This document shows positions 12,364 to 63,634 of a stretch of DNA of 64,000 nt, in pieces. Origin of the DNA: Candidatus Saccharimonadales bacterium (GTDB lineage: Bacteria > Patescibacteriota > Saccharimonadia > Saccharimonadales > JACQNP01); the NCBI GenBank assembly GCA_038257245.1, contig JBBSJL010000003.1, positions 2,074-66,073 of the forward strand, in the 5' to 3' direction. The translations under genes were made by a program, and so were the position numbers. The stretch's first letter is position 1. Every line of letters begins with the position of its first letter. The notes under the pieces were generated by a model that searched no databases, was not told where the DNA came from, and saw nothing but the letters and a program-made list of their open reading frames with translations.

Positions 12364-13808
12364 TATTTTGCTCCAGAACCCGTAATGACCACTCGTAAGG
12401 TACGTATAAGGATTGTAATATCCATCCAGAAACTCCAGTTCTGAACATAATAAACATCTAATTTGCGGCGTTCTTCGAAACTTATGTCCTCACGCCCCGA
12501 TATTTGGGCTAACCCTGTAATTCCAGCTTTAACACTCAAGATATCGTGCTTTCGCGCATAAGTATCTAACTCGGCTGCAATCAGGGTTCGCGGCCCAACA
12601 AGACTCAGATCACCTAGAATGACGTTGAATAATTGAGGTAGTTCGTCCAGGCTGGTCTTTCTTAGGAAGTTCCCGACTTTACTAACTCTGGGATCACGAT
12701 TGAGCATATAGCCTTGTTGCTTATATTTTTCATATAGCTTTGGTTTTCCCAGCTTTTCAAACGCCTCTTTGTCGCTTAGCCCGCTAATGTCAGCCCGATG
12801 CGTTCGGAATTTATAGACTCTGAATTCTCTGTTGAATCTAGTTAATCTGGTTTGGCGAAAAAAGACCGGAGCTTTAGAATCGGATAACTTCAATACGAGG
12901 GAGATTGCCAAAATTATAGGTGAAGTTACAACAATAACAAGTGACGCACCGGTAAGATCGAATAATCGTTTTACAACTTTGCCCCAGCCAATTAGCGCTG
13001 TTTGGTGGACGGCAATAACAGGTCGGTCGGCAAATAATTCAACATCTATATTACCGACAAACATATCACTGTTACCCGGTATGAATCTATAAGAGATGTG
13101 GTGTAGCTGACAGTGCCTTACAATTGCATTATTTTCGTCCTGGTTCTTGTAGAGTTCTGTTTGTACAAGCCCATGTGGTTTGTCGGTAATTTTCTGCAAT
13201 GCCTCTTCGAACGAATTGTAACTGGGTATTTTATGAACTCTTCTACCAACAGTACCAACAACCTTAATACCAGTTACATTTGTAGCACTCATACTGTGGG
13301 CGATACTTGTTGTTGCATCAGTATCTCCGATTAGCAAAATATTACTTACGCCAATGTTGTATCTGAATAACGTATGGCGAATAAACCTAGCGAGGGTTCT
13401 AAATATAAGCAAAAAGGCGAGACTTAGGAGTAATCCATATATTGGTACTAGCCTTGCTGGGAACAGAGACTGTTCGCTCACAAAGTCGTAACCTATGAAG
13501 ACCAACACACCTAAAAACGAACTTACAATTAATCTACCCACTTCTGCGAAACGCTTTTCGTAGACATACTGGTTATATAGACCTAGTAATGCATTGATAA
13601 GTATCCAAATTGGTATTATGGCTAAAAAGGCGTAGAGAAAGGTTGTGGCAGGAATTTGTGCTAGAAGTGGCCTAGGATCAAGCTTTACACGTAAAACATA
13701 AGCTGAAGTAAACGCTCCGACTAGCGCCAGGAAGTCACCAACAATTAAAAACAGTGCATATACGAGTGAAGAATTGTTTTTCATATTAAACTTACAATAT
13801 TGTATCAC
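12363..13808 (-). CDS. Polyprenyl glycosylphosphotransferase (WbaP/EpsB-type initiating sugar transferase)
   Basis: N-terminal TM bundle, then a KRLFDL...PVFFRQTR...YKFRT...PQLFNVILGDLSLVGPR bacterial sugar-transferase domain. Confidence 0.85.
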   Translation of the reverse strand: MIQYCKFNMKNNSSLVYALFLIVGDFLALVGAFTSAYVLRVKLDPRPLLAQIPATTFLYAFLAIIPIWILINALLGLYNQYVYEKRFAEVGRLIVSSFLGVLVFIGYDFVSEQSLFPARLVPIYGLLLSLAFLLIFRTLARFIRHTLFRYNIGVSNILLIGDTDATTSIAHSMSATNVTGIKVVGTVGRRVHKIPSYNSFEEALQKITDKPHGLVQTELYKNQDENNAIVRHCQLHHISYRFIPGNSDMFVGNIDVELFADRPVIAVHQTALIGWGKVVKRLFDLTGASLVIVVTSPIILAISLVLKLSDSKAPVFFRQTRLTRFNREFRVYKFRTHRADISGLSDKEAFEKLGKPKLYEKYKQQGYMLNRDPRVSKVGNFLRKTSLDELPQLFNVILGDLSLVGPRTLIAAELDTYARKHDILSVKAGITGLAQISGREDISFEERRKLDVYYVQNWSFWMDITILIRTLRVVITGSGAK

Positions 13809-13854
13809 TTTGATTGGTGTACAGTGTTATACTGAACGAAAAGCGATCATGATT

Positions 13855-14289
13855 ATGGCTAAAAAGAAATCATCTAAACAAAAAACTGAACTGCTAACAA
13901 TCGTCCAATATTTGGTCAGTGGTGGGGTATATTTCTGGTCTGGATACTTAATGTTTTTTGCTCTGGACAAAGGCTTAGGCCTAAGCCTTTGGTGGGCTAA
14001 ACTTTTAGCAAACATAACGGGCTGGACAATTAACTATGTTTTACAGAGGTATTGGGTATTCAATAAACCCAAGCTCAAGAGCCAAAATATTGATATATCG
14101 TTTCGATACGGTGTGATTACCATAGCTGACTTCATTATTGATTTCTTTATAGTGGCCGGCTTGAAAAATATCGGTATCACACCTTATATTGGGCAATTTA
14201 TTTCCTCAGGCTTCTTTACAGTATGGAATTATCTCTGGTACAAAACGTGGGTTTTTGCGGGTAAAAAACCAAAGAAGGGTAAAAAATGA
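13855..14289 (+). CDS. GtrA-family membrane protein
   Basis: Four helices with YLVSGG..., NYVLQRYWVF and WNYLWYKTWVF motifs. The start was moved to the ATG at 13855 (13849 is also possible), because the track start overlaps the divergent gene. Confidence 0.7.
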   Translation: MAKKKSSKQKTELLTIVQYLVSGGVYFWSGYLMFFALDKGLGLSLWWAKLLANITGWTINYVLQRYWVFNKPKLKSQNIDISFRYGVITIADFIIDFFIVAGLKNIGITPYIGQFISSGFFTVWNYLWYKTWVFAGKKPKKGKK

Positions 14290-16491: not shown

Positions 16492-17973
16492 ATGGAAAAA
16501 TCGACAAACCTAGAAGTTATTGATCGGCCTGAACATCAGGGTATTATTGAAGCTTCGGAAATTGTCGATAGGCTAGGCATAGAACAACTTGCCTGCGAGC
16601 TAATCGAAAACAGAGATAAAATCGAAAATGTGGCTGTTCCTCGTCAAGAGCGTGAAGATAATGCACGTACGGCACTTATGGAGGCGCTAACTGCGTCAGG
16701 GCACCTCTCTAGAGTTGAATTAACGGGTAGCTTAGAGGAAATTAATGCTCAAGTACTGTCGCGATTGCTAAATGGTTGGAGTGACAACCTAAACCCTCAC
16801 GAAAAACAAAGGCGTTTTGTTGAGCTTTGTAATGAACTAACAATCCAAGAGGTGCATAGATGCATTGAAGCAGGCATGTTACCAGAATCTGTAGAACTAA
16901 CGGAGATTTCTGACTACCCAATGGCATTATCTGACAAGCAAGCGGAAAGATTGGGTTATCGACCAGAAAATAAAAAAGGCATGGTACGTACAACAGGACT
17001 CGTAAAGAACAGTGGCGGTACATACACAAGAGTTATCGAACAGGTTAGCAGAAGCAGTGCTGATTCCAGTAGTACATTTGAATTTATGCAATCAGCCGAC
17101 CTAGATGGTAGCTCCGCTCAGCTACTTGATGTAGAAGCACTGGGCAGGCCGCTACTAACCAGCACAGTAGATTACGCAGATGGAGTTATTGATATTCAAA
17201 GAAGGCTGGATAAACATTCGGGTGGTCATATATATGGTGAAAAACCAGGCCCAAACCAAATTCCATATGAGGATTTACGCGAAGAGTCTTTTAGAAGAGA
17301 GCGACGTATTGAATTTTATACAACTAACCTAGCAGATTTTGAAACAAGACTAGACCAAGCATACATAGGCGGGCTTATATCCAAAAAAGAGAAGGACAAT
17401 CAGTTCAAACAAGAAGTTAGGGCAATATTAGAAGCTATTTGTACGTTAACCCCAGAATATGCAGAGGATTGTTTTGGTGGGAAAGCTGCTGCAACTTTTT
17501 TTGAGGCATCAAATCTAGCTGCAGCCGGGCAACTAGAAATGGCCAGGCAACTTATTCATGATAACCGCGACCTGCAGAAACCAATAGTTTTTTGTGGGAT
17601 GTCTATTTCACCAGAAAAAGCCAAGGAATTAGGGCTAAATATAAGTGAAACAGGTGATTTGATTTCCGAAGGGAAAGAAAAGATGAAGTTTAAACCTGGG
17701 GTTTGTAGAATTAAGTCTTGCGCCAAGAAAACAGACGTGGGGCCTTGTAGCATATGTCGCAATTGCCAGTCTAGGTTTGATAAAGGCGACGACCCAACTT
17801 TAGATATTGTTAGTTCTTCAAAGACGACTCAAGAAGATCCAGGCACCAAAACGTTAGATGCAATATTTCACTATAGTGATGTCGATAAAGAACCACACGA
17901 CATTATCGAACAAGAACGAGTGGATGCCAATACTTCAAAAGAAGAAACATATAAAACACCAGTGGCTGTATAA
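16492..17973 (+). CDS. Hypothetical soluble 493-aa protein with a C-terminal Cys4 zinc-ribbon-like motif
   Basis: Long clean ORF with no TM segment. CRIKSC-x9-CSICRNC near the C-terminus. I recognise no family. Confidence 0.75.
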   Translation: MEKSTNLEVIDRPEHQGIIEASEIVDRLGIEQLACELIENRDKIENVAVPRQEREDNARTALMEALTASGHLSRVELTGSLEEINAQVLSRLLNGWSDNLNPHEKQRRFVELCNELTIQEVHRCIEAGMLPESVELTEISDYPMALSDKQAERLGYRPENKKGMVRTTGLVKNSGGTYTRVIEQVSRSSADSSSTFEFMQSADLDGSSAQLLDVEALGRPLLTSTVDYADGVIDIQRRLDKHSGGHIYGEKPGPNQIPYEDLREESFRRERRIEFYTTNLADFETRLDQAYIGGLISKKEKDNQFKQEVRAILEAICTLTPEYAEDCFGGKAAATFFEASNLAAAGQLEMARQLIHDNRDLQKPIVFCGMSISPEKAKELGLNISETGDLISEGKEKMKFKPGVCRIKSCAKKTDVGPCSICRNCQSRFDKGDDPTLDIVSSSKTTQEDPGTKTLDAIFHYSDVDKEPHDIIEQERVDANTSKEETYKTPVAV

Positions 17974-47509: not shown

Positions 47510-47607
47510 GCAGAGTTTATTGTCTCACAAAACGACAAATTTATTGAGTGTATTTTAACAGGAAAGACGCCGTTGTAAATATTGACTATCTGTGGTATAA
47601 TATAGCA

Positions 47608-48162
47608 ATGAATTACAAAGAAGTTGATGGCGAAATATTACCATCCTACAGCCCAGATGGAAACGGCAACCAGCCATATTACCCAAAACCAGACACAGAA
47701 ATGCCTGATTCCTTTCATGGTGAATCAGCTGAAGTTGCTGATAGTGCCGAAGTAATTGATCTAACAGCCAGGAGAACAGCCGGAGAGGTTGCTGACTCGA
47801 AAGCTCGTCATCCTGGATTGCCTGACCAGTTACCAGGCATTGATATGACAGACACGCAGTCAACCATGCCAATTGGTAGTGTTGATGAAAAGTCATCTGC
47901 TAGAGGACGTCATCCAACAGCATTTGTGCCTGAACCTAAGGAGGAAGCGGGAGGTGATAATCCTAGAAAAAGAAAAAAGGTTGTAGAATTGCCAGGCCAA
48001 AGGAATAATGGCCGCACAAATGGACCAGGAACCCCTACGCGTGCTGAGATTCAAAAAGGTTTAAGTTTTGAAGAGATCAGAAGGCGTGATCGTAATAATA
48101 AGGCAGGTGCAGCTTTGGCAAGAGAAGCAATAAAGAATGCATTATCTACTGAAGAAGAGTAG
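47608..48162 (+). CDS. Disordered acidic/basic protein, unknown function (leaderless start)
   Basis: TGGTATAAT (47593-47601) lies 6 nt before the ATG at 47608. The track start at 47548 is an upstream GTG. Confidence 0.5.
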   Translation: MNYKEVDGEILPSYSPDGNGNQPYYPKPDTEMPDSFHGESAEVADSAEVIDLTARRTAGEVADSKARHPGLPDQLPGIDMTDTQSTMPIGSVDEKSSARGRHPTAFVPEPKEEAGGDNPRKRKKVVELPGQRNNGRTNGPGTPTRAEIQKGLSFEEIRRRDRNNKAGAALAREAIKNALSTEEE

Positions 48163-48200: not shown

Positions 48201-49607
48201 TTGGTAGCTGATAGTACAAGTCAAGAGACCCTGTTTGTGGTTAGTGAACGAAGCGGACAGATTTACACTCCTGTTTCCCACGAGACTGATGTTGCGGCAG
48301 TTGATGTAGTAGAGCAAAAACTCCATCTTATTAATACCCTTGGCTACTTAGCAGGTGCCAGCATGAGGTCTGGACTTGTGCGTGCCGGACAAGATGTACT
48401 GAACGATAGATATGGCGATGAAGCGTCAAAGGTTGTTACGGGGGCAGAAAATCAAAGAGTCATCTTAATTAAAAAAGCGAAACATTCATTTGCGCGTGCA
48501 ACGGGGCATTTTACTCTTGTTGATTCTGGGCTAACTACAGAGACTGATGCTAGACGTTTAACCACGGCGATGTTTTCAGATTTCTTAAAGAAGTATTATG
48601 GCCCTAGACACCATGAAGCTTTGCACGATTATCGATTACAACTAGAGTCAGAAGTCGACAGCTTGATAGCATCACATGATTCTGAATCAAGTATTTCAAT
48701 GTTTAATCGTCAAAACGGGGTGAGGAACCATCGCTCAGACAATTCGGTTCATGTAATCGTCGATTATGGCGAAGAACTAGAAGAACTTGGTACAAGAGGA
48801 CGTCTAGAAGCTATTTTAGGAGACCCAAGAGCAGGATTTATACCTACAACCAATAACGAAAAGAACCAGATAGTCAGTTGGCTTGATTACTTAGATGATC
48901 CAGAAAAGCCATTGGGGATAATAAATCAACTGAGAGAAGTATTTGTGCGAGCCCAAAGACCAAGTAAGAAAGGTCGTTCCCTTGGTGTTAAGTATGGCGT
49001 AAGGGCTGTAGAAAGCATTGCCTGGGAGGTTGGCGATTATTTACAAAGTGCATCATTGGATTTGGCTAACCTCCAAAGTTTAAGGACGTCTGTAGATCAA
49101 GACCAAAGACCGACACTAAGCCTTTATGATGATTTACATAAGTCGGGCTCAGACGAGCAAGGAGATTCCCCCGAAGAATTATTTGGTCAGGACACAAACG
49201 GTCTTTTAACTTATATTCAATGGCTAGATATAAAAGAATTCATGGAAAAGGGCAATTGGCCGGGGCCTGTAGCGAGCCCAATTGTGGGCACAGAAGATCC
49301 ACCACGTAGTTTACGCCCAAAATTTGACTCTAGCCCAGGTAAACGAAAAACTATATTTGACCAATACCATCGGCCTGACATAACCGAAGAATTCAAGGCA
49401 CATATTATAAGTAGAGCTAAAACCATAACTTTTCGGGATATTAGGAGTAATATAGACGATTGTATTTCTAACTCTGAAAGGCGTTTAGACTTTCATAATC
49501 GTAGGTTTACAGAACTTGCCGAATATGATGATGGTCCATCATCGCCAGTTAGAGAGGCTGTTAACACAATCCAAGAAAAACTAAAAAGTACGGATGCTGT
49601 AGCATAG
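48201..49607 (+). CDS. Hypothetical soluble 468-aa protein
   Basis: TTG start with an AAGGAG SD 5 nt upstream. Clean ORF with no family that I recognise. Confidence 0.65.
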   Translation: MVADSTSQETLFVVSERSGQIYTPVSHETDVAAVDVVEQKLHLINTLGYLAGASMRSGLVRAGQDVLNDRYGDEASKVVTGAENQRVILIKKAKHSFARATGHFTLVDSGLTTETDARRLTTAMFSDFLKKYYGPRHHEALHDYRLQLESEVDSLIASHDSESSISMFNRQNGVRNHRSDNSVHVIVDYGEELEELGTRGRLEAILGDPRAGFIPTTNNEKNQIVSWLDYLDDPEKPLGIINQLREVFVRAQRPSKKGRSLGVKYGVRAVESIAWEVGDYLQSASLDLANLQSLRTSVDQDQRPTLSLYDDLHKSGSDEQGDSPEELFGQDTNGLLTYIQWLDIKEFMEKGNWPGPVASPIVGTEDPPRSLRPKFDSSPGKRKTIFDQYHRPDITEEFKAHIISRAKTITFRDIRSNIDDCISNSERRLDFHNRRFTELAEYDDGPSSPVREAVNTIQEKLKSTDAVA

Positions 49608-50650: not shown

Positions 50651-50726
50651 TGGTGGGGGTGGCAGGAATTGAACCTGCGACCAATCGGTTATGAGCCGAG
50701 TGCTCTAACCCCTGAGCTACACCCCC
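50651..50726 (-). tRNA. tRNA-Met (anticodon CAU), elongator type; tRNA-Ile2(CAU) not excluded
   Basis: Reverse complement GGGGGTG TA GCTC AGGGGTTA GAGC A CTCGG CTCATAA CCGAT TGGTC GCAGG TTCAATT CCTGC CACCCCC A CCA. It has a G1:C72 pair and Y11:R24. Confidence 0.85.
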
Positions 50727-52751: not shown

Positions 52752-52826
52752 CGCGGGGTAGAGCAGCGGCAGCTCGTCTGGCTCATAACCAGAAGGTCGC
52801 AGGTTCGAGTCCTGCCCCCGCTACCA
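52752..52826 (+). tRNA. Initiator tRNA-fMet (anticodon CAU)
   Basis: CGCGGGG TA GAGC AGCGGCA GCTC G TCTGG CTCATAA CCAGA AGGTC GCAGG TTCGAGT CCTGC CCCCGCT A CCA. It has a C1xU72 mismatch and A11:U24, and its acceptor and D-stem are nearly identical to E. coli tRNA-fMet. Confidence 0.9.
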
Positions 52827-52865
52827 AGCATAAGCATTATGACCTCTAGAAATAGAGGTCTTTTC
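52821..52865 (+). repeat. Junction repeat copy A (tail only; overlaps the last 6 nt of tRNA-fMet)
   Basis: CTACCAAGCATAAGCATTATGACCTCTAGAAATAGAGGTCTTTTC is identical to the tails of copies B and D. The hairpin spans 52841-52860, followed by a T-run. Confidence 0.9.
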
Positions 52866-52888
52866 ATTCGTTTTGTTATTATTAAGTT

Positions 52889-53491
52889 ATGAAGGTCAAC
52901 TATAGTCCAGAGCAAGTTGCTGCTCAGTTTCGTAATTGTGGCAGAAGGTGGTGGATTGCGGGAGGATGGGCAATAGACTACTACCTAGGGAAGGTCACTC
53001 GTGAACACGAGGATGTCGATGTAGCCATTTTAAAAAGTGACGAGAAGGCATTTCGTAGCTACATGCAAGACTGGGAAATATGGCCTGGATTAGGCGATAA
53101 CAAATTAGAAGATAAACCGATAAGGATCGATGAGGCACTTTCGGAAGAACGAGGTGTGCTATGGTGCCGTCCATCCCCTGCAGACGAATGGGCCTTTGAA
53201 CTGTTACTCAATCCAACCAAGGGTAGCGAGTGGGTGTTTAAGCGAGACGAGAGAATACGAAAACCGTTAGATAGACTCGGGTCTGTTACTGACGACGGTA
53301 TTCCATATCTAAATCCAGAAATTGTACTTTTATTTAAAGCCAAAAATAATCGGGAAAAAGATCAGCAAGATTTTGAAACTGTAATACCAATGCTTGGCGA
53401 AGACGCAAGAAGGTGGCTACGTCACTCAATACAGATTGTTCATCCTGATCACCCCTGGCTAACTGCGCTGTGTTCAACTCCTACTGCCTAG
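52889..53491 (+). CDS. ANT(2'')-like nucleotidyltransferase (aminoglycoside 2''-adenylyltransferase family fold)
   Basis: WWIAGGWAIDYYLGKVTREHEDVDVAI parallels the LWIGGGWAID..LGRVTRKHDDIDL motif of ANT(2'')-Ia as I recall it. The last ~7 codons run into repeat copy B. Confidence 0.65.
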   Translation: MKVNYSPEQVAAQFRNCGRRWWIAGGWAIDYYLGKVTREHEDVDVAILKSDEKAFRSYMQDWEIWPGLGDNKLEDKPIRIDEALSEERGVLWCRPSPADEWAFELLLNPTKGSEWVFKRDERIRKPLDRLGSVTDDGIPYLNPEIVLLFKAKNNREKDQQDFETVIPMLGEDARRWLRHSIQIVHPDHPWLTALCSTPTA

Positions 53492-53630
53492 ACCCTACAG
53501 GGGATTCCTCCCTAACCTCATTCACTATCTCCCACATACCTATCAGTTCTCGTTTAATAAGGTTCCATTTCGTCAAAGGCATGCCTACCAAGCATAAGCA
53601 TTATGACCTCTAGAAATAGAGGTCTTTTTT
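53471..53630 (+). repeat. Junction repeat copy B (full: head, body, tail)
   Basis: The last 111 nt differ from copy D at 1 position by manual alignment. The hairpin spans 53605-53624, followed by a T-run. Confidence 0.9.
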
Positions 53631-53653
53631 GTTGGCTTTGGTATGATGTCTTT

Positions 53654-54205
53654 ATGAAAAATGCAATTCTATTACATGGTTCTGGCGGAAGTAGCGTAGA
53701 CTACTTTTGGTTTGAAGATACTAAGAGGCACCTTGAATCATTAGGTTACGAAGTATGGTGGCCACTATTGCCGAATACTGATAGTCCAAAACTAATTGAG
53801 ACCCGTGACTATATAGAACAAAATATGCCCAGTATTGACGAACAAACAGTTATTATCGCTCATTCATCTGCATGCCCTTTAATTCTCCATATGATGCAAT
53901 ATTTTAAGGTTAGAGTACGGCAAGTCATTCTAGTATCAGGATATTACCAGTCTATATCTGGAGAATCGAATAACATGTTACCCGAAAGTTTCGATTGGGA
54001 CGAGATTAAGCAACATGCGGAAGAGATAATACTAATAAACTCCGATAATGACCCCTGGGGTTGTAATGACAAACAAGCACGACCTGCTGCGGAAAAACTA
54101 GGTGCGAAGTTTATATTCGCTAAAGAGCAGGGTCATATGGGCTCAGGGACATATAATCAACCTTATAGAAAGTTTGAGCTGCTTAATTCACTACTACCAA
54201 GTTAG
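53654..54205 (+). CDS. YdeN/RBBP9-type serine hydrolase
   Basis: MKNAILLHGSGGS start and an AHSSAC nucleophile region. TGGTATGAT lies 6 nt before the ATG at 53654. The track start at 53603 sits inside the repeat hairpin. Confidence 0.7.
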   Translation: MKNAILLHGSGGSSVDYFWFEDTKRHLESLGYEVWWPLLPNTDSPKLIETRDYIEQNMPSIDEQTVIIAHSSACPLILHMMQYFKVRVRQVILVSGYYQSISGESNNMLPESFDWDEIKQHAEEIILINSDNDPWGCNDKQARPAAEKLGAKFIFAKEQGHMGSGTYNQPYRKFELLNSLLPS

Positions 54206-54223
54206 TTTGTTATAATCCAAAAC

Positions 54224-55174
54224 ATGGATATCAAAGATACTAACGTTCATAATAGCGGCATGCTTGATGTGGGTGATGGACATAAGCTTTATTGGGAAGA
54301 TTGGGGCAATCCTAAATCAACACCAATTATGCACTTTCATGGTGGCCCAGGCGGCGGCTTTAGCGATAGTCATAAGTTAATGTTTAACGCTCAAAAACAC
54401 AGGGTAATTTTTTATGACCAAAGAGGTTCGGGTAAGAGCACGCCCTATGCGTCAACTAAAGATAATACAACGCAAAAACTAGTAGAAGATGCAGAGAAGC
54501 TACGTAAACACCTTAAGATAGATAAGATGCACCTTGTTGGTGGTTCTTGGGGCTCAACAATGACATTAGCGTATGCAATGGCTTACCCAGATAATGTTAA
54601 AGCCATGGTTATGTGGGGCATATATCTAACTAGGCAGTTTGAAAATGACTTAATTGCAGCTGGATATGCAAAATATAACTATCCTGAAGCATGGGAACGG
54701 TTTATATCGCTAGTACCTGAAGAGCATCGAAAAGACGGTGACTCTATAACAAGATACTATTCAGGCAAGATAAACTCTAAAAATACTAAAGAGGCAATTC
54801 AGTATGCTGATGAGTGGACACTATGGGAGTGCACATTACTGTCCGTAAACTATGATAAAGCTAAACTAGAACTCGATGTTATAAAAGGCGATGATAGTAA
54901 CCTAGCTATTGCAAGATTAGAAACACATTATTTTATTAACGATTGTTTTATGCCAGGAAACTATTTGTTAGATAACATAGGTAAAATAAAACACATTCCT
55001 AGTTATGTTGTTCAGGGTAGATTTGATAACTGCACACCTCCAATTACTGCGTATGAACTAAGTAAGTCATATGGCAAAAACATGACTTTGCAGTTTGTAA
55101 ATGGTGGCCATAGACGTAGTGACCCAGAAGTACTTGCTGCCTTAAGAGCAGCTGTAAACACGACCTTAGTCTAG
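54224..55174 (+). CDS. pip: Prolyl aminopeptidase (proline iminopeptidase, S33)
   Basis: HGGPGGG, YDQRGSGKS and GGSWGSTM motifs. TGTTATAAT lies 7 nt before the ATG. Confidence 0.85.
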   Translation: MDIKDTNVHNSGMLDVGDGHKLYWEDWGNPKSTPIMHFHGGPGGGFSDSHKLMFNAQKHRVIFYDQRGSGKSTPYASTKDNTTQKLVEDAEKLRKHLKIDKMHLVGGSWGSTMTLAYAMAYPDNVKAMVMWGIYLTRQFENDLIAAGYAKYNYPEAWERFISLVPEEHRKDGDSITRYYSGKINSKNTKEAIQYADEWTLWECTLLSVNYDKAKLELDVIKGDDSNLAIARLETHYFINDCFMPGNYLLDNIGKIKHIPSYVVQGRFDNCTPPITAYELSKSYGKNMTLQFVNGGHRRSDPEVLAALRAAVNTTLV

Positions 55175-55180
55175 TGCTTT

Positions 55181-55205
55181 AAGCTCTAGAAATGGAGGTC
55201 TTTTT
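55181..55205 (+). repeat. Junction repeat copy C (hairpin-only variant)
   Basis: AAGCTCTAGAAATGGAGGTCTTTTT, followed by the same TTTGTTATGATTAAGTTATGAA leader as after copy A. Confidence 0.75.
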
Positions 55206-55229
55206 ATTTGTGTTTGTTATGATTAAGTT

Positions 55230-55955
55230 ATGAAATCGAATAGTCATCCGGTTACACAGCAGTATCAGCCTACAAATACAACCTGTAGTCCAACAGCACT
55301 TTCGACACTACTTGGGCACTACGGGAATAAGATAAGTCCACTGGACGTTGAAGCGAAGGTTCCACAGTCTATAAATGATAAGGGTGAAAAGATAGGCACT
55401 ATAAATCAACAATTAGCTACATGGTGTTTAACTAGAGGATACAACGTGACACTCTATACTTTCGATTGTCAGATAATAGATCAATCATGGGGTAAGCTCG
55501 AGACAAATAAACTGATTGAACGTATGAAATTGCGAAAGAATGGGTGGGTCGTTCCGGGCATGGGCGAAGAGTGGACAAAACGATACACACAAGCTTATAT
55601 TGATTTTATTATTGCTGGCGGTAAATTACATATACAGCCTGCAGTAACAACCGTACTACTTTACGATCTATTGAAGACAGGCCCTTTCTTGCCATGTGTG
55701 AGCTACAGCACTTTATATGGTGAAGCTCGTTCGAGGAATATTGGGGAAATTGAAGTTGTTACTGATGATGTAAATGGTAGAGCAACTAACCACTCGATTG
55801 TCGTATATGGCAATGATGAGTCGGGTAATTTCGTGATTGCGGACTCTTGGAAGAAACCAGGCCTTCACACTATTGAGCCCGAGAGATTACTTGCGGCAAT
55901 AAGCACGGCACAGATTGAGTGTGATAACCTGCTATTCCAAATACAACCTAAGTAG
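55230..55955 (+). CDS. Peptidase C39-like (papain-fold) cysteine peptidase domain protein
   Basis: QQYQPTNTTCSPTALSTLLGHYG fits the Q...N.C.P.A....L..YG motif, and NHSIVVYG is a candidate His. TGTTATGAT lies 6 nt before the ATG. Confidence 0.55.
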   Translation: MKSNSHPVTQQYQPTNTTCSPTALSTLLGHYGNKISPLDVEAKVPQSINDKGEKIGTINQQLATWCLTRGYNVTLYTFDCQIIDQSWGKLETNKLIERMKLRKNGWVVPGMGEEWTKRYTQAYIDFIIAGGKLHIQPAVTTVLLYDLLKTGPFLPCVSYSTLYGEARSRNIGEIEVVTDDVNGRATNHSIVVYGNDESGNFVIADSWKKPGLHTIEPERLLAAISTAQIECDNLLFQIQPK

Positions 55956-55962
55956 AAGTATT

Positions 55963-56120
55963 GGTTCAAGTCCTACTGCTTAGACTGAAACAGGGCTTCC
56001 TTCCTAATATCATTCACTATCTCCCACATACCTATCAGTTCTCTTTTAATAAGGTTCCATTTCGTCAAAGGCATGCCTACCAAGCATAAGCATTATGACC
56101 TCTAGAAATAGAGGTCTTTT
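55963..56120 (+). repeat. Junction repeat copy D (full)
   Basis: Head GGTTCAAGTCCTACTGCTTAGAC, a body, and a tail identical to copy A. The hairpin spans 56097-56116. Confidence 0.9.
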
Positions 56121-56230
56121 CATTTTATAACTATTTGCCAGGGAGCTGCTACCTAGTTAACCGTTATCCTTTTAACAACATTGAGAGTATAATTGAAGGT
56201 ACACAAAGTGGAATAATCTAGGAGCTAAAT

Positions 56231-56638
56231 ATGACAGATATTAAACAAACCGTAACAGAGACCGAAGATAGTGGTAATAATGAAGTCGGAGCAGCTGTCC
56301 GGCAGAAAACTAAACAAATCCATACTGAATCAGCGGCAGACAGTAAAACAACTGCACAAAACATCGTTTGGTACATACTGGGTGTTTTGGAAGTCGTTTT
56401 GGCAATTAGATTTGTTCTCAAACTCCTAGGAGCAAACTCTGCGAACGCATTTGTTGATTTAACTTATTCTATTAGTGGAATTATTACTGCGCCCTTTGAT
56501 AGCATATTCGGCGTAACAAGCACCACTACAGGTGATACTAATTCTGTGTTTGAACCTTCAATAATTGTTGCCGGGTTAGTCTATATGTTGATAGCGTGGG
56601 GAGTCGTCAAGCTGATCACTATTAACCAAAAGCAGTAA
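56231..56638 (+). CDS. YggT-like two-helix membrane protein
   Basis: TAGGAG SD. The IRFVLKLLGAN....ITAPFDSIFG pattern resembles the YggT repeat. Confidence 0.45.
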   Translation: MTDIKQTVTETEDSGNNEVGAAVRQKTKQIHTESAADSKTTAQNIVWYILGVLEVVLAIRFVLKLLGANSANAFVDLTYSISGIITAPFDSIFGVTSTTTGDTNSVFEPSIIVAGLVYMLIAWGVVKLITINQKQ

Positions 56639-56660
56639 CTATAATAAGGTAAGGCGTCGA

Positions 56661-56888
56661 ATGAAATATTACAAAAAACGCATTGAAGATGTACTAAAAA
56701 GACCACGAAGTCTTATTTCAAAAGTTAACTTCCGTCGCTATCTTACAAACGTTAACGAGCCGGCAGAAAATATATCAGAATTACGGCTACCAGAATCAAA
56801 AATTCGAAAACACGACAAGATAGATTCTGCACGGCAAAGGGTTGGGATTCGTAAACTTGCTAAAAAACTAAGACTTAGAAGTAAGTAG
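56661..56888 (+). CDS. Small highly basic protein, unknown function
   Basis: 75 aa, K/R-rich, with a weak SD (TAAGG). Confidence 0.4.
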   Translation: MKYYKKRIEDVLKRPRSLISKVNFRRYLTNVNEPAENISELRLPESKIRKHDKIDSARQRVGIRKLAKKLRLRSK

Positions 56889-56941
56889 ATTAAAGCTAGA
56901 TGTTGATTATTATTTCATATATAGCTACCCGCATTAAATAG

Positions 56942-58651
56942 ATGAATTTTGTTAAAACAGCATTGTTGAATATACGACTAGTTCTGGTCCTACTTGGAGT
57001 AGTATTTTTAGGTTCTATAGCTTACAGCCAACTAAAAGGAAGCCAAGATTTTGCTGATATTATAAATGGGCATGACTGGACCCACTTTGCTGGAGCAACA
57101 CAAACCCAAAGTGGTATCCAAATATCTCCACTGAATAAAGAAATCATTCACCAAGACGGATCAAAAGCACAGCTAAATCCACCCTTAAACGTCCGTGGTC
57201 CTCATTTGGCAGTCTCTGGAAACTTTGAAGTTAAGGCTAACATGGATGGCATAGAAGACGGGGCTTCGTTACAATTTTACAGCCAACCGCCAGTTATATA
57301 TGACGAATGGCGACAAGAGCACCCAAGCATTAGAATTGATATATCTGCCAACAGCGTAGAAGCGCGTATATGGGACGGTAACTCATCAACACCAATGGAC
57401 ATTCGTAGTTTTAATGTGAACTTAAATGGGCCAACGAAGCTAGATCTTAAGCACGAAGACGGACAGATAGCTCTGGCAGTAAACAGCCACGAGCTTGGGT
57501 CTATGCCAGATCATAATATATTTGCTGGTGGGACGGTTTGGTTTGGGTTAGACGGAAACGATAAAGGGGATGGCTGGATACTACGTGACCTTAGGGCACA
57601 TCCTCTTGGTAAAGATAGCTTGGATGTTATAGCCGTAACTTCTCTAACTGTTGACCACAATGACGCAAACTTACTACGTAATCTAATTGATAAACAGTCT
57701 CGCAAAATACAAATTGGCGTGGCAGTGTCGGTAAACCCTCTATACACCGATGAAGCATACAAGAATATTGCCATGAGCCAGTTTAATTTAGTAACCACAG
57801 AGAGTAGTTTAAAGGCCCAATTTATTCATCCAGCACCTGATAAATATAACTTTACCGAAGCGGATAATATTATTGCTATGGCGGAGGCTAACGGCCAGGC
57901 AGTTCACGGGCATACTTTGATCTTTGCTAAGTCTAATCCATCGTGGATGACAGATACACCCGAAGACAAGTTGGCTGGCGTCATGACAGACCATACAACT
58001 AATGTTGTCAAACATTTTAAAGGTCGTATTGGTTCGTGGGATGTTGTTAATGAACCTATGTCCGAAAAGGACGAAGATTATACAAACGGGAATCTAGGCT
58101 TACGACAGCATTTTTGGTTCAAAGCTATGGGCGAACAATACATCGACAAAGCATTTAAAGCGGCACGAGCGGCTGACCCAACTGCAAAACTATATTTGAA
58201 TGATTACGGTATCGAGCATGATGGCATGCGATGGCAAGCATTCTACACACTCGTGCAACGTCTTCAAGCTCGTGGTGCCCCAATTGACGGTGTTGGGTTT
58301 GAATCTCATGTCTACCAGACCACGGACAAAATTGATCTGACAATATTAAGAGCGCATATAAAAGCAATTGCCGATTTGGGGCTAAGTGTCCGAATATCGG
58401 AAATAGATGTTTTGGGAGATGAACCACAATTTCAGAGCCAGCAGTACAGCGATGTATTGGCTGTTTGTTTAAGTGAACCTAGCTGCTCATCATATACCAC
58501 CTGGGGTGTATCGGACTTATATGGTTCTACAACTATTTCTGAACGATATCCACTATTGCTAGGTGATAGTTTACTGTGGGACAAGGATATGCAACCCAAA
58601 TCAGCTTTTTTTGAACTTCAGAAAGTGCTTAAGAACAACCAGGTGCAGTAA
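56942..58651 (+). CDS. Membrane-anchored glycoside hydrolase family 10 (endo-beta-1,4-xylanase-like) with an N-terminal beta-sandwich-like domain
   Basis: Signal-anchor helix, a ~200-aa unassigned domain, then a GH10 domain with GHTLIF, WDVVNEP (acid/base Glu) and ISEIDV (nucleophile Glu). Confidence 0.8.
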   Translation: MNFVKTALLNIRLVLVLLGVVFLGSIAYSQLKGSQDFADIINGHDWTHFAGATQTQSGIQISPLNKEIIHQDGSKAQLNPPLNVRGPHLAVSGNFEVKANMDGIEDGASLQFYSQPPVIYDEWRQEHPSIRIDISANSVEARIWDGNSSTPMDIRSFNVNLNGPTKLDLKHEDGQIALAVNSHELGSMPDHNIFAGGTVWFGLDGNDKGDGWILRDLRAHPLGKDSLDVIAVTSLTVDHNDANLLRNLIDKQSRKIQIGVAVSVNPLYTDEAYKNIAMSQFNLVTTESSLKAQFIHPAPDKYNFTEADNIIAMAEANGQAVHGHTLIFAKSNPSWMTDTPEDKLAGVMTDHTTNVVKHFKGRIGSWDVVNEPMSEKDEDYTNGNLGLRQHFWFKAMGEQYIDKAFKAARAADPTAKLYLNDYGIEHDGMRWQAFYTLVQRLQARGAPIDGVGFESHVYQTTDKIDLTILRAHIKAIADLGLSVRISEIDVLGDEPQFQSQQYSDVLAVCLSEPSCSSYTTWGVSDLYGSTTISERYPLLLGDSLLWDKDMQPKSAFFELQKVLKNNQVQ

Positions 58652-58660
58652 GAACAAACT

Positions 58661-58818
58661 GGTTCAACTACTACCGCCTAGGCTGCAACAGGGCTTCTCT
58701 CCTAACTTCATTCACTATCTCCCACATACCTATCAGTTCTCGTTTAATCTGGTTCCAATTCGTCAAAGGCATGCCTACCAAGCATAAGCACTAAGACCTC
58801 TGTAAAAAGAGGTCTTTT
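58661..58818 (+). repeat. Junction repeat copy E (full, diverged)
   Basis: About 8 mismatches to copy B over the last 111 nt. Hairpin variant GACCTCT gtaaaa AGAGGTC followed by TTTT. Confidence 0.85.
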
Positions 58819-58850
58819 ATATTTTGTTAGTAAAGACTACAAAATAAGTG

Positions 58851-58879
58851 TTGACATGCTATTTATGATTTGGTAAATT
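58851..58879 (+). promoter_or_regulatory. Sigma-70-type promoter of an apparently non-coding unit
   Basis: TTGACA (58851-58856), a 17-nt spacer, then TGG-TAAATT (58871-58879). Confidence 0.45.
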
Positions 58880-58885
58880 ATTTCT

Positions 58886-59028
58886 CGGAAGACCGAGTGA
58901 AACAGCACAAGTTCGTTAATATGTATCCGTTCAAGTTAGTAAAGTTCGAAGTTTGTTAGTTCGTAGGATACATCTGTGGGTGCTAGTCTTCCCCAGTACA
59001 AAGAGGCACAGAACGTGCCTCTTTTCAT
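58886..59028 (+). ncRNA. Candidate ~140-nt small RNA or cis-regulatory leader
   Basis: Bounded by the promoter above and the terminator AAGAGGCAC agaac GTGCCTCTT TTCATTT (59001-59030). An internal 7-bp stem TGTATCC/GGATACA (58922-58972) encloses AGTT(C/A/T)G repeats. No plausible ORF. Confidence 0.3.
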
Positions 59029-59185
59029 TTGGTTCTATTGCTCACAGGTGCTGCATCAAACACTAGTTTTCATCTGTTCGAATCTTCAAACAAAACGTTC
59101 CAATTCGACAAACCTAGATACTTATAAATACAGTCTACTTAATAGTTGGAGTAATTTGTCCTCATTTTTGGTATATTTGATTGAT

Positions 59186-59752
59186 ATGCAACATTTAGTT
59201 ATAGATTGTACAAAACCGAAGGATAAAGATTTCAATTCCCGACTATACAGGTACCTAGATATTATTGCTGACTACGACGTAGTTAATATTGAAGAGATAG
59301 GCGAGAGCACATTAGGTAAATATAAGACAATAATAATTACAGGTGTTCCAGTAACCTACCCGCTAGATTCCATATATGAAACAGCCAAAAGGTTAGAATG
59401 TATTAAAAGTGTGAATATCCCTGTGCTAGGAATATGTCTTGGTCATCAGGTAATAGGAGTACTATTTGGCTCTAAAATTTATGAGCACGGTGAAGCTGAG
59501 CATGGGGATAGAAAGGTCACCATAGTTAACGATGACAAAATATTCAAAGACATGTCGCATGAGTTTCATGCCCAAACACTTCATACGGCATCAGTAAGTT
59601 TGCCCCATTCGTTCAAACACTTAGCTAAATCCTATAGTTGTCATAATGAATCGATGAAACATAAAGAAAAGGATATTTATGGCTTTCAATTTCACCCAGA
59701 GTTTAAGGAATCATCCAGAGCAGTAATAAGAAACTTCATACTATTGAATTAG
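59186..59752 (+). CDS. Class I glutamine amidotransferase domain protein
   Basis: PVLGICLGHQ (Cys nucleophile) and FQFHPE (His/Glu). TGGTATATT lies 8 nt before the ATG at 59186. The track start at 58976 (GTG) reads through the terminator. Confidence 0.7.
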   Translation: MQHLVIDCTKPKDKDFNSRLYRYLDIIADYDVVNIEEIGESTLGKYKTIIITGVPVTYPLDSIYETAKRLECIKSVNIPVLGICLGHQVIGVLFGSKIYEHGEAEHGDRKVTIVNDDKIFKDMSHEFHAQTLHTASVSLPHSFKHLAKSYSCHNESMKHKEKDIYGFQFHPEFKESSRAVIRNFILLN

Positions 59753-59820
59753 AAACAGCTTTCCACCTTTCCACCTTCCCAACTCCTAAAGCAGTAAGAT
59801 CCAATTAGAATGTACTTGGG

Positions 59821-59885
59821 CTACCAAGCATATTCACTATGGATTATAATAAGGAAGGTGTTTTAGCCTAGCTTTGTTATGATTA
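59821..59885 (+). repeat. Junction repeat copy F (scrambled/degenerate)
   Basis: CTACCAAGCATA (tail start) is fused to TTCACTAT (a body fragment), and TTTGTTATGATTA (the leader) is at 59873-59885. CAACTCCTA, a head-like fragment, lies at 59780-59788. Confidence 0.55.
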
Positions 59886-59893
59886 TGTAGTAT

Positions 59894-60316
59894 ATGAAAA
59901 CCACAAAAAGAAACCAAAATCTGTGTAGTAAGTCAGGTTTTACAATTGTAGAAGTGATGATTGTCCTCGCTGTGGCAGGTCTAATTGTATTAATTCTTTT
60001 CTTTGCCATTCCTGCTTTACAGCGGATGACACGAAATACACGTCGTGATAATGATGTTCAATTAATAGTCGCAGCGATTAATGAATGCGTACTGAATAAT
60101 AACGGCCAAATTGACGGCTGTCAGGCTTTCGGCAATATCCCTATAGATGCGTCTAATTTAAGTATTTTCTCTGGTGCTCATTATGGTGTTGATGCGTCGG
60201 GTAATTCTGTCGCACCAACAGAAGAAGAGCCAAACTGGCTTTTTAATTTAAGGTGTAATAGTGATGGAACTTGGTTTTTGTCTGATAACCCACAAAGAGC
60301 TTTCGTCGTTACTTAA
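59894..60316 (+). CDS. Type IV pilin-like protein (prepilin N-terminal cleavage/methylation motif)
   Basis: KSG|FTIVEVMIVLAVAGLIVLILF has the G-F-T-x-x-E motif and a hydrophobic helix. Cys residues are present in the C-terminal domain. Confidence 0.7.
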   Translation: MKTTKRNQNLCSKSGFTIVEVMIVLAVAGLIVLILFFAIPALQRMTRNTRRDNDVQLIVAAINECVLNNNGQIDGCQAFGNIPIDASNLSIFSGAHYGVDASGNSVAPTEEEPNWLFNLRCNSDGTWFLSDNPQRAFVVT

Positions 60317-60420: not shown

Positions 60421-60484
60421 GGTTAAATTCCTACTACCTAAACCCCAACAGGCTTTCTTCTTAGTATCATTCACTATCTCCCAC
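60421..60484 (+). repeat. Junction repeat copy G (head plus first part of the body only)
   Basis: GGTTAAATTCCTACTACCTAAACCCCAACAGGCTTTCTTCTTAGTATCATTCACTATCTCCCAC. Homology stops at 60484, and no tail or hairpin follows. Confidence 0.75.
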
Positions 60485-62752: not shown

Positions 62753-62786
62753 GCTTATATTACCTCTAGAAATGGAGGTCTTTTTT
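62753..62786 (+). repeat. Junction repeat copy H (tail/hairpin variant)
   Basis: GCTTATATTACCTCTAGAAATGGAGGTCTTTTTT carries the same TGGAGGTC variant arm as copy C. Confidence 0.75.
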
Positions 62787-62842
62787 ATTTGCCACTTGCT
62801 CCTTTAAGGCTTATGCTTAATCTAACTAATACAAGGAATATT

Positions 62843-63634
62843 ATGAAAAAACTAAACACTAAAGGCTTCGGAGTAGTAGAATTAATTCTAATTATTGTTA
62901 TCTTCGGGCTAATAGGTGGCGTAGGTTACTACGTATACAACTCACAGAAGGAAACGAATACTTTATCTGGTAATAGTGATAGCGATAATGCAAAAAAATC
63001 TGACGAAAACTCCAATATAAAGTTATATGCGGACGAATATGCTGGGTACACCATTGAGTATCCAGTTAGTTGGCAAGTTGAAACCTCAAGTGAATATTCA
63101 GAAATTGGACAATCAGAAGTATCAACAACAAAACTTACTTCAGCAACTGGGCTCACACTTACATTTGAACACAACTTTGGTGGTAGAGGCGGTGATTGTC
63201 CTCCCGGTCCAAATGATAGCCCCCACGCTCCAGGAAACATATGCCAAACAAGCGAAATTATATTTGTAGAAAAAACTGGGAATACAGTCCTTGGTATTGA
63301 TGCTACCGTAGATGCACAATCACAAGGACGCTTCAAAGACTATGACCTCTACCTAGTTCGAGAAAAATATACAGACCCTGGCGCCTCTAACCCCAACACT
63401 GTCTACTTTAGCGGTCTATCAGTTGATACTTATTCAGATGTGGTAAAAGTATCGGAACCGAAAATGGGTCTATTTGTGCCATTCAGTATAATTTCGCAAT
63501 TTAGTTCACCGTCAGTATCAACAGGATATTACGTTGATATTAAGATGTCTCCAAAAGGCAATAGCGAGGAATTCTTTAACCAAGAGGATGTTAAACAAGC
63601 TGAAGCGATCTTAAAGAGTTTTCGCTTTAACTAG
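62843..63634 (+). CDS. Type IV pilin-like/pseudopilin-like protein with a large C-terminal domain
   Basis: The ATG at 62843 has an AAGGAA SD. KG|FGVVELILIIVIFGLIGGVGYY has the G-F-x-x-x-E motif. The track start at 62708 reads through repeat H. Confidence 0.6.
   Translation: MKKLNTKGFGVVELILIIVIFGLIGGVGYYVYNSQKETNTLSGNSDSDNAKKSDENSNIKLYADEYAGYTIEYPVSWQVETSSEYSEIGQSEVSTTKLTSATGLTLTFEHNFGGRGGDCPPGPNDSPHAPGNICQTSEIIFVEKTGNTVLGIDATVDAQSQGRFKDYDLYLVREKYTDPGASNPNTVYFSGLSVDTYSDVVKVSEPKMGLFVPFSIISQFSSPSVSTGYYVDIKMSPKGNSEEFFNQEDVKQAEAILKSFRFN

Follow-up and report, generated by a model that had tools for sequence, protein, structure and literature searches.

A direct repeat recurs downstream of a tRNA-fMet gene in the 64-kb stretch of DNA analysed here (termed the window). 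The first 25 nt of the repeat, called the head, had been described in a first-pass annotation as a displaced 3′ fragment of a tRNA. Comparison with related loci points to a different origin. The head is very probably the outer end of the P arm of an integrative element, i.e., the final codons, the stop region and the 4–5 bases beyond of the element's own large serine recombinase (LSR) gene. The repeats are in all likelihood relics of attachment sites, left by a serine integrase that targets the CCA end of a tRNA and whose gene straddles attP. A family of LSR-using integrative elements in Saccharimonadales-type bacteria would, with high probability, account for head, repeat and array together.

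Repeat units at the tRNA-fMet locus

The four heads reported at positions 53471, 55963, 58661 and 60421 are present in the sequence. All were said to begin with the T-loop-like motif GGTTCRANTCC, which is exact at 55963 but has one mismatch each at 53471, 58661 and 60421. With up to one mismatch, this motif is found 10 times in the window versus 4.96 ± 2.0 expected. Rather than being independent occurrences, the heads form the 5′ ends of a direct repeat whose homologous copies are located at 53472–53628, 55964–56120 and 58662–58818, with a truncated copy at 60421–60484. A full repeat consists of a 121-nt module that has the head at its start, followed by CTACCAAGCATAAGC and a terminator. The module terminates in ...GGCATGCCTACCAA, and its final 7 nt, CTACCAA, open a common stretch that continues GCATAAGCATTATGACCTCTAGAAATAGAGGTCTTTT. 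This stretch represents the last 6 nt of the resident tRNA-fMet (CTACCA) plus the 42 nt found 3′ of the tRNA, including an intrinsic terminator. The tRNA-derived part of the repeat is thus its tail and not its head, and contiguous identity with the tRNA is displayed by the tail only.

Two tRNA genes are found in the window, at 50651–50726 (minus strand) and 52752–52826 (plus strand), and both are tRNA-Met (ARAGORN; Rfam in gathering and E-value modes). The second is the tRNA-fMet with anticodon CAT (Rfam 64 bits), and its sequence displays the C1:U72 mismatch that is typical of initiator tRNA. The CCA end of this gene is the integration target and the B side of attL. The core CTACCA(A) and ~42 nt with the intrinsic terminator (hairpin 52841–52860) span 52821–52868 on the plus strand, as seen in the terminator scan and in repeat family D2, in which these 48 nt recur 3′ of each P arm. 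The segment is probably what remains of the attachment site on its P′ side, where the recombinase gene lies; its homology to P′ is suggested by the attP centre CCTACCAAA(N)TAGG at three related loci (L015, L016 and L018).

P-arm relics, each representing the last ~34 LSR codons, are encoded on the minus strand. Relic 1 (53471–53591) was detected by alignment and by tblastn with residues 518–547 of P0149, a 555-amino-acid LSR (E = 1.6e-6). Its open reading frame is at 53481–53591, and the head (53471–53495) contains the stop of this frame. Relic 2, the one originally flagged, spans 55963–56083 (P0149 residues 518–552, E = 9e-7), with an open reading frame at 55973–56083, a head at 55963–55987 and a TAG stop that is the complement of the CTA within CCTAC of the head. 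Relic 3 spans 58661–58781 (tblastn E = 1.2e-6 and alignment), with its open reading frame at 58671–58781 and head at 58661–58685. Plus-strand copies of the core and terminator accompany all three: copy 1 at 53585–53632 (a D2 copy, 94% identical, terminator at 53605–53624), copy 2 at 56077–56124 (100% identical to the sequence 3′ of tRNA-fMet) and copy 3 at 58775–58822 (repeat family D2 and terminator scan).

A diverged minus-strand P-arm relic without a head, termed type B, is found at 59753–59868 and is followed by the core CTACCAAGCATATTCAC (D2 copy at 59821). This class of relic is also present in L004, L008 and L010. Relic 4 (60421–60484, minus strand; nhmmer profile positions 3–70, E = 4e-10) is truncated: the head and 64 nt are kept, and the inner half-site and core are deleted. 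Terminator and leader modules without a P arm are found at a cassette boundary at 55161–55235 (plus strand; repeat families D2, D4 and D7) and at 62758–62792. The repeat module has no stable predicted fold (z = +0.4 to +1.7), and the repeat gives no Rfam match in gathering or E ≤ 10 modes. An attC-like hairpin or other structured RNA was considered for the repeat and ruled out (z > 0).

In overall layout, the intact tRNA-fMet is proximal and is followed by blocks that each close with a repeat. The same order of a tRNA and then repeat-ended blocks is found in L008, L010, L011 and L015. The suggestion that a tRNA-targeting integrase leaves footprints at the distal ends of blocks is therefore supported, but the comparisons made here do not support the head itself as a displaced tRNA 3′ fragment.

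Likeness of the head to tRNA

The co-linearity of the heads with the 3′ end of tRNA-fMet, on which the tRNA interpretation was built, is real but shallow. The head at 55963 shares 15 of its 25 bases with the tRNA, of which 10 fall in the 11 nt of the generic T-loop/T-stem and 5 in the remaining 14; the remark that the acceptor part does not fit tRNA-fMet was correct. Beyond the T-loop/T-stem, only 3–8 of 14 positions in the heads are identical to the target tRNA, no better than shuffles. Nineteen heads were set against 11 tRNA 3′ ends taken from the window and related loci, and for the window heads the 14 nt that follow the motif were scored against 9 such ends. In these comparisons, the window heads show no similarity beyond the generic motif (p = 0.07–0.69 ungapped versus shuffles), and gapped alignment to tRNA-fMet gives p = 0.33–0.85 against shuffles. 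Among the tRNAs compared, none matches beyond the motif and the scores are those of shuffled sequence, which goes against the tRNA-fragment claim as it was first worded. Chance resemblance was one of the origins proposed at the time; for the others, a different tRNA or a diverged copy, the window heads show no match beyond the motif among the tRNAs compared. A further observation, that no complementary 5′ strand precedes the heads, holds: a cloverleaf is detected at no head by ARAGORN or the Rfam tRNA model, and neither gives a partial tRNA match at any head, even at E ≤ 10.

The first 6–7 nt of the motif, (G)GTTC(T/A)A, are invariant in eight aligned module ends from five contigs, including three intact recombinase gene 3′ ends. 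A recognisable head starts at least 14 of 29 repeat copies (nine sources), and the similarity between these copies begins at GGTTC. The sequence 5′ of GGTTC is the variable end of a cargo gene, and shorter copies do not have the head. The invariance and the number of copies with a head indicate that the motif is a conserved feature and not noise. The chance probability of a T-loop-like 11-mer (up to one mismatch) in a 121-nt element is only ~0.01; together with the invariant (G)GTTC(T/A)A, this suggests that the resemblance may have a further cause. The head may have an ancient tRNA origin, or may represent a third recombinase-binding motif. The GGTTC(T/A)A motif is missing 3′ of the stop in a distant circular element, L019.

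Several other relationships to tRNA were considered and set aside. T-stem covariation between the head and the resident tRNA (CCTAC and CCTGC, respectively, in the window; CCTCC in both in the relatives) has weak statistics, and the heads vary across lineages (CCTAC, CCTAT, CCTGT and CCACT). A repeat formed from a tRNA 3′ segment split by insertion, or by internal duplication of the core-proximal region, was rejected by local alignment (p = 0.5–0.8). The tail of P0189, ...GAEPVG, was examined as an antisense T-loop, but the DNA is GAGCC and not GAACC. Read as a tRNA T-arm plus acceptor, the head would be ...CCTACTGCCTAGACCA or similar, i.e., from a tRNA ending ...GGTTCAAGTCCTACTGCYTAGACCA.

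A conserved minus-strand peptide and the recombinase tail

The minus strand of the module encodes ~34 amino acids, and these show constraint at the level of the protein. The ratio pN/pS is 0.42 in frame 0, the lowest of the six frames, and switches between AGG and CGA/CGG arginine codons are found in this frame. The peptide (M/L)VAELASKWNQVK.ELI.MWEIVNEVRKE..V.V*, or a close variant, is present in every lineage. A profile search of 1.84 billion representative proteins detected 107 clusters that match it. Nearly all are 29–60 amino acids in length and a few are up to 131; one repetitive 754-amino-acid match, P0071, is taken as a chance coiled-coil match. The cluster members examined all start with M(V/L/A)... 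(MV in most), and these first codons correspond to the tRNA-like TACCA(T/A) end in reverse complement. In P0023 and P0067, the peptide is fused in frame to ...LFP.G..Y.FETG.GT...LI.KI.....N.N(L/V)V. The segment ...LFP.G..Y.FETG... belongs to the C-terminal region of the LSR encoded at locus L014, and the same peptide forms the C-terminus of LSRs of 533–555 amino acids. On this comparison, the ~34-amino-acid peptide is the C-terminal tail of an LSR family. An earlier idea, which derived the micro-ORF from a tyrosine integrase, was dropped: a word-based search gave no long homologue, and the ORF proved to be an LSR tail.

A search with the L014 LSR revealed at least 640 relatives. Its gene encodes Resolvase and Recombinase domains and the end ...FPEGLVYDCETGFRTPVLNESYLLIKEIALAGDQNPNVVAATGIEPVTLGL*; the last codons are antisense to the overlapping tRNA-Met, whose anticodon loop supplies the stop. 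Antisense-tRNA residues (for example ATGIEPVTLGL, ATGIEPVTSSL, PTRIELVTSGL and ASGLEPLTPGL) terminate 108 of the 120 closest relatives. Five of the 120 are 20–40 amino acids longer and end in the peptide family, i.e., they have the long tail. P0149 has the clearest one, where ...NPTLVGMPLTKWSQVKQELIQMWQITSAISQKNWIEAKGLV compares with LVGMPLTKWNLIKRELIGMWEIV... in the window; the two are near-identical (LVGMPLTKWSQVKQELIQMWQI). When eight LSRs were searched against the window by tblastn, the sole match was P0149 residues 518–552 at the three full repeats (E ~1e-6), and no LSR body was detected in the window. No recombinase is found by Pfam among the open reading frames of 47–64 kb, and none is evident from the translations and the same tblastn search in 1–47 kb.

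The head as the probable end of a recombinase gene

The 121-nt modules of the window and the 3′ end of the intact L015 LSR gene are equal in length and align without gaps, with 80–82 of 121 positions identical. Relic 2 displays 82 identities, and its head alone displays 15 of 25 (p = 1.5e-4). At the head position, L015 has GGTTCTATACCAGCCCCTTAGC, the reverse complement of GCT AAG GGG CTG GTA TAG AACC, which reads ...A K G L V stop. On this reading, GGTTC represents the 5 nt that follow the recombinase stop, and the adjoining CTA is the stop codon. GTTCTA with CTA as a stop codon is also found in L018 (GTTCTAACC) and in the type B relics (GGTTCTAGTC), and in all three settings it breaks the purine-57 rule of the T-loop. 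In the window and its closest relatives, the T is changed to A (GGTTCAA). The recombinase stop is thereby lost and an upstream stop is used; the same change gives the head its T-loop look. This look thus appears to be a by-product of the ...TAG AACC gene end and not a tRNA remnant.

Related loci and hosts

Related loci were collected by one metagenome scan with the most conserved 21-mer, which gave five true relatives, and further contigs by protein look-ups. A repeat profile detects 29 copies in the window plus eight related metagenome and MAG contigs, in which the repeats follow tRNA(CAT) genes. Synteny with the window is seen in L008 and L010, where the array comes after DivIC and tRNA-fMet, and the L011 array sits behind a different tRNA(CAT). 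LSRs with Resolvase, Recombinase and zinc-ribbon domains are encoded at L014, L015, L016, L018 and L019.

At the L015 locus, a tilS-like gene is followed by a tRNA(CAT) with acceptor GGCGGCG/CGCCGCT, a 513-amino-acid LSR gene, cargo, a P arm with core and finally a 555-amino-acid LSR gene. The 513-amino-acid LSR reads into the tRNA(CAT), and the tail of the 555-amino-acid LSR is supplied by the P arm. This is the layout expected if a second element inserted at the tRNA ahead of an older one. In L016, the tRNA-proximal LSR has decayed to a 77-amino-acid C-terminal fragment. The contigs L019 and L020 represent one ~13.7-kb element in circularly permuted form; it has a long-tail LSR and no tRNA, and is probably the excised form.

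The host of the array appears to be a Saccharimonadales-like bacterium. The neighbouring MFS gene has a single relative on a genome contig, in a Candidatus Saccharimonadales MAG (42% identity, not syntenic), and its protein has no exact match on record. No relatives of the L014 LSR were found in viral contigs. An 18-mer match in viral contigs, L001, was judged to be chance. A viral-contig match to TTGGTTCCATTTCGAC (L030, the one inspected) lies in a coding region, VNWFHFDVR, taken as an endolysin-type peptidase motif, and the other short matches are assumed to be alike.

Attachment site and proposed mechanism

The centre of attP in L015, L016 and L018 is a small inverted repeat, CCTA-CCAAA(N)-TAGG, and the common att block is CTACCAA(A). 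The inverted repeat places the likely crossover at the tRNA CCA or 1–3 nt beyond, so that exchange would occur within CTACCAA(A). The candidate attP comprises ~60 bp around CCTACCAAAGTAGG. In every P arm, the distance from GTTCCA to the A of CCA is exactly 30 nt, and that from the T-loop GGTTCRA in the tRNAs is 25 nt. Structural work on a Listeria integrase bound to attP reportedly describes a 5-bp offset between serine-integrase attP and attB half-sites; GTTCCA may be the P-arm counterpart of the T-loop GGTTCRA, which would fit this offset. The integrated form and a tandem P-core-P′ junction are observed in L015, and no empty attB was recovered among the related loci. The P′ half-site of the window is degenerate (TAAG and not TAGG).

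It is proposed that the LSR gene spans attP, such that the crossover separates its last ~34 codons from the rest. The gene would be split when the element integrates at the CCA end of a tRNA(CAT) gene. The LSR body would stay beside the tRNA and would now end in ~13 antisense-tRNA codons, and the last 34 codons, the stop and the 4–5 bases beyond would be moved to the distal end of the element, ahead of the duplicated core. This stranded 121-nt piece would constitute the repeat, and its first 25 nt the head. Repeated insertion at the same tRNA would stack elements in tandem. In the window, the LSR genes would since have been lost, leaving cargo between five relics (three full, one truncated and one diverged), each of which is followed by a terminator in this account. 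The activity of these LSRs is itself a prediction.

Cargo blocks

Cargo genes between the relics are found at 52889–60316 on the plus strand (Pfam). They encode an ANT(2″)-like nucleotidyltransferase, a serine hydrolase, an S33-type hydrolase and a C39-like peptidase, and further cargo encodes a YGGT-like protein, a GH10 xylanase, a class I glutamine amidotransferase and a pilin-like protein. With 0.7–2.7 kb and one to three genes each, the blocks are unusually small. A ~65-nt terminator/leader, TTTGTTATGATTAAGTTATGAA, is located directly 5′ of the cargo ATG at 52861, 53626, 55202 and 59851 (families D4 and D6), and several LSR-less cassettes carry the same leader between core and start codon. 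The shared leader argues against simple independent decay or deletion of LSR genes as the explanation. It suggests that the blocks may spread as LSR-less cassettes, in trans or by homologous recombination.

Alternative explanations

The head might still be a true displaced or diverged tRNA 3′ fragment that was captured in the P arm from a tRNA-fMet or tRNA-Ile2-like gene. The family consensus GGTTCAACTCC agrees at every position with that of the T-loop/T-stem, the copies are homologous from GGTTC onwards, and the motif is rarely expected by chance in an element of this size. Two comparisons also reach low p values beyond the motif: the consensus head with the tRNA-fMet of relatives (9 of 14, p = 0.047, uncorrected and with heads that are not independent) and the L012 head (7090) with a tRNA-Ile2-like 3′ end (9 of 14, p = 0.005, uncorrected for the ~170 comparisons). 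Nevertheless, this origin is improbable, as the window heads score like shuffled sequence both ungapped and gapped, and the head corresponds in position, by homology, to LSR codons and a stop. Moreover, the GTTCTA of the intact L015 and L018 genes violates R57, the circular L019 has no such motif 3′ of its stop, no internal duplication links the head region with the core-proximal region, and the complement of the acceptor would begin with C or U, which is unusual. Even less probable is an independent ~34-amino-acid micro-protein gene located between cassettes, with the head as its stop and 3′ flank. The low pN/pS, the 107 clusters of short open reading frames, and an ATG or TTG start with AGAGG ~11 nt upstream are what such a gene would display. 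Against it, the peptide also terminates the 533–555-amino-acid LSRs, from whose genes the constraint can be inherited. In addition, tryptophan is changed to a stop in 2 of the 15 first copies, the window copies have a 1-nt frameshift in the last 8–10 codons relative to relatives, no promoter is evident, and the start codon is merely the reverse complement of the tRNA CCA end.

The blocks might not be decayed elements but non-autonomous, integron-like cassettes, each consisting of a P arm, core, ~65-nt leader and cargo and inserted singly by an LSR acting in trans. This is a minority possibility: the blocks are small, their boundaries are identical around unrelated cargo in the window, L004, L008 and L010, and the terminator and leader 5′ of the cargo ATG are common to them, which is not expected from independent LSR deletions. 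On the other hand, no cassette was recovered as a small circle, and none was seen in identical form at two positions. Equal boundaries could be spread by homologous recombination between repeats, L016 displays LSR decay beside the tRNA, and the window P′ half-site has degenerated. A more elaborate version is somewhat less probable: an integron-like array at tRNA(CAT) in Saccharimonadales-type bacteria, in which miniature LSR-less cassettes are shuffled in trans by a tRNA-CCA-targeting LSR whose tail, swapped on integration, senses the integrated or excised state. The miniature cassette proposed here consists of the 121-nt P arm, the CTACCAA core, the ~65-nt terminator/leader and one to three genes.

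Significance and comparison with known systems

The 121-nt repeat, or a ‘hypothetical 34-aa protein’ MVG..WNQIK.ELI.MW.. beside CTACCA, may serve as a marker of past serine-integrase insertion; mini-proteins mis-called in this way make up at least 107 clusters in public databases. The likeness of the head to a T-loop is not indicative of a tRNA remnant. A large LSR family, with at least 640 relatives, appears to target the 3′ CCA end of tRNA with an open reading frame that crosses attP. Serine integrases are used in genome engineering, where a state-dependent C-terminus and a conserved tRNA target could be useful. The array also represents an accessory-gene hot spot in the very small genomes of Saccharimonadales-type bacteria (candidate phyla radiation). 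A 2020 survey states that targeting of tRNA genes by serine integrases had not been known (PMC7192596), and the word tRNA is absent from the main text of a large LSR catalogue (PMC10083194). A literature search of incomplete coverage found no description of a tRNA-CCA-targeting LSR family with an attP-crossing open reading frame, nor of Saccharimonadales arrays.

The elements resemble those of the serine integrases phiC31, Bxb1 and A118 in their simple att sites with a short common core, in the small inverted repeat at the attP centre and in needing no arm-type sites, and the LSRs at related loci share the Resolvase, Recombinase and zinc-ribbon domains of that type. They differ in targeting tRNA(CAT) genes at the CCA end and in that the recombinase open reading frame crosses attP, which would give the enzyme different C-termini before and after integration. 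In archaeal integrases of the SSV1 type, attP also lies within the integrase gene, which is split on integration into a tRNA gene. These are tyrosine recombinases, the split is near the N-terminus and the gene is inactivated, whereas here the last 34 codons alone would be exchanged and a full-length enzyme would remain.

As in integrons, small promoter-poor cargo blocks are gathered at one locus with a repeated recombination-site module between them. Unlike in integrons, no IntI-type tyrosine recombinase is found (Pfam, 47–64 kb), and the repeat is without a hairpin and carries a terminator and leader. Tandem arrays of genomic islands form by successive insertions at one tRNA, with att relics in between (PMC7192596). 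CIMEs and tandem islands are alike in that elements lose recombination genes, but the relic described here consists of 6–7 nt of tRNA and 121 nt of recombinase gene end, and the blocks contain only one to three genes. A close parallel in gene arrangement is found in the mycobacteriophages BPs, Brujita and those of cluster P, where attP is inside an open reading frame, the viral and prophage C-termini differ and the switch occurs on integration at a tRNA gene (PMC3694055). In that integration-dependent immunity system, the split gene encodes the repressor, the integrase is a tyrosine recombinase and the removed tail is a degradation tag of demonstrated function; here, the split gene is that of the serine recombinase itself and the tail comprises 34 amino acids of the LSR.

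tRNA genes and array cargo

In the window, the genes for a DivIC-like protein and an MFS transporter are bracketed by an elongator-type tRNA-Met (50651-50726, minus strand) and the initiator tRNA-fMet (52752-52826, plus strand). The same pair of tRNAs is present in the related locus L008. Two window open reading frames upstream of the Dus gene, 47548-48162 (204 amino acids) and 48201-49607 (468 amino acids), have no match in Pfam.

Two pilin-like open reading frames lie within the array downstream of tRNA-fMet or just past its end. Both have a pilin-like hydrophobic N-terminus; that at 59894-60316 displays an N-terminal methylation motif by Pfam, and that at 62843-63634 was judged by eye only. 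The first cassette of L008 resembles them, also as judged by eye. Among the contents of the arrays in relatives (L010, 4071-5483; L012, 4608-6017) are a PIN-domain toxin gene preceded by a small open reading frame, pairs of the RelB/YafQ and MazE/PemK types, and an IS element with an rve transposase. L010 has in addition a second, unrelated large serine recombinase of 463 amino acids with a different C-terminus (12507-13898, minus strand); it is separated from tRNA-fMet by ~2 kb and lies on the opposite side from the array.

A conserved leader, TTTGTTATGATTAAGTTATGAA, comes after the terminators in the window (52861-52893, 53626-53658, 55202-55234 and 59851-59896); one copy, 55161-55235, is without a P arm. 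Because a -10-like TATGAT/TATTAT is situated merely 7-8 nt upstream of the cargo ATG and the window leader copies have no Shine-Dalgarno sequence before it, the cargo mRNAs may be leaderless.

Recombinase tails

The P-arm relics, which correspond to the last ~34 codons of a large serine recombinase gene, display minus-strand open reading frames at 53481-53591, 55973-56083 and 58671-58781. At least 107 clusters of 'hypothetical proteins' of 29-60 amino acids in public sets (P0001-P0109) share the pattern MVG..WNQIK.ELI.MW.IV..VR.. They are not independent genes but the C-terminal ends of serine-recombinase genes, left stranded.

The final ~13 residues, e.g. ATGIEPVTLGL, are antisense tRNA in 108 of the 120 recombinases closest to that of L014 (P0110-P0229); in L014 this end is at 17498-17574. 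The tails therefore tell which tRNA each element occupies. In the tRNA(CAT) targets inspected (L014 and L011), the anticodon loop CTCATAA supplies the recombinase stop codon TGA. The recombinase coding region contains, on the opposite strand, the terminator hairpin of the upstream tRNA (...LLIKEIALAGDQNP...), found at L014 17440-17490, L016 5450-5480 and L019 10790-10830.

Positions 1-13761 of L019 and 1-11303 of L020 represent one ~13.7-kb element, circularly permuted, probably in its excised or episomal state. Besides the recombinase with the long tail, the element encodes an HTH protein, an NTPase, thymidylate synthase, GTP cyclohydrolase II, OMP decarboxylase and guanylate kinase.

Spacing of GTTCCA and the T-loop motif

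In every P arm, the distance from GTTCCA to the A of CCA is exactly 30 nt (56053-56082 in the window, with counterparts in L015, L016, L018 and L019), whereas the target tRNAs have 25 nt from the T-loop GGTTCRA to that A, a 5-nt offset. The attP and attB half-sites of serine integrases are similarly offset from one another, and the displacement between P arm and tRNA resembles theirs.
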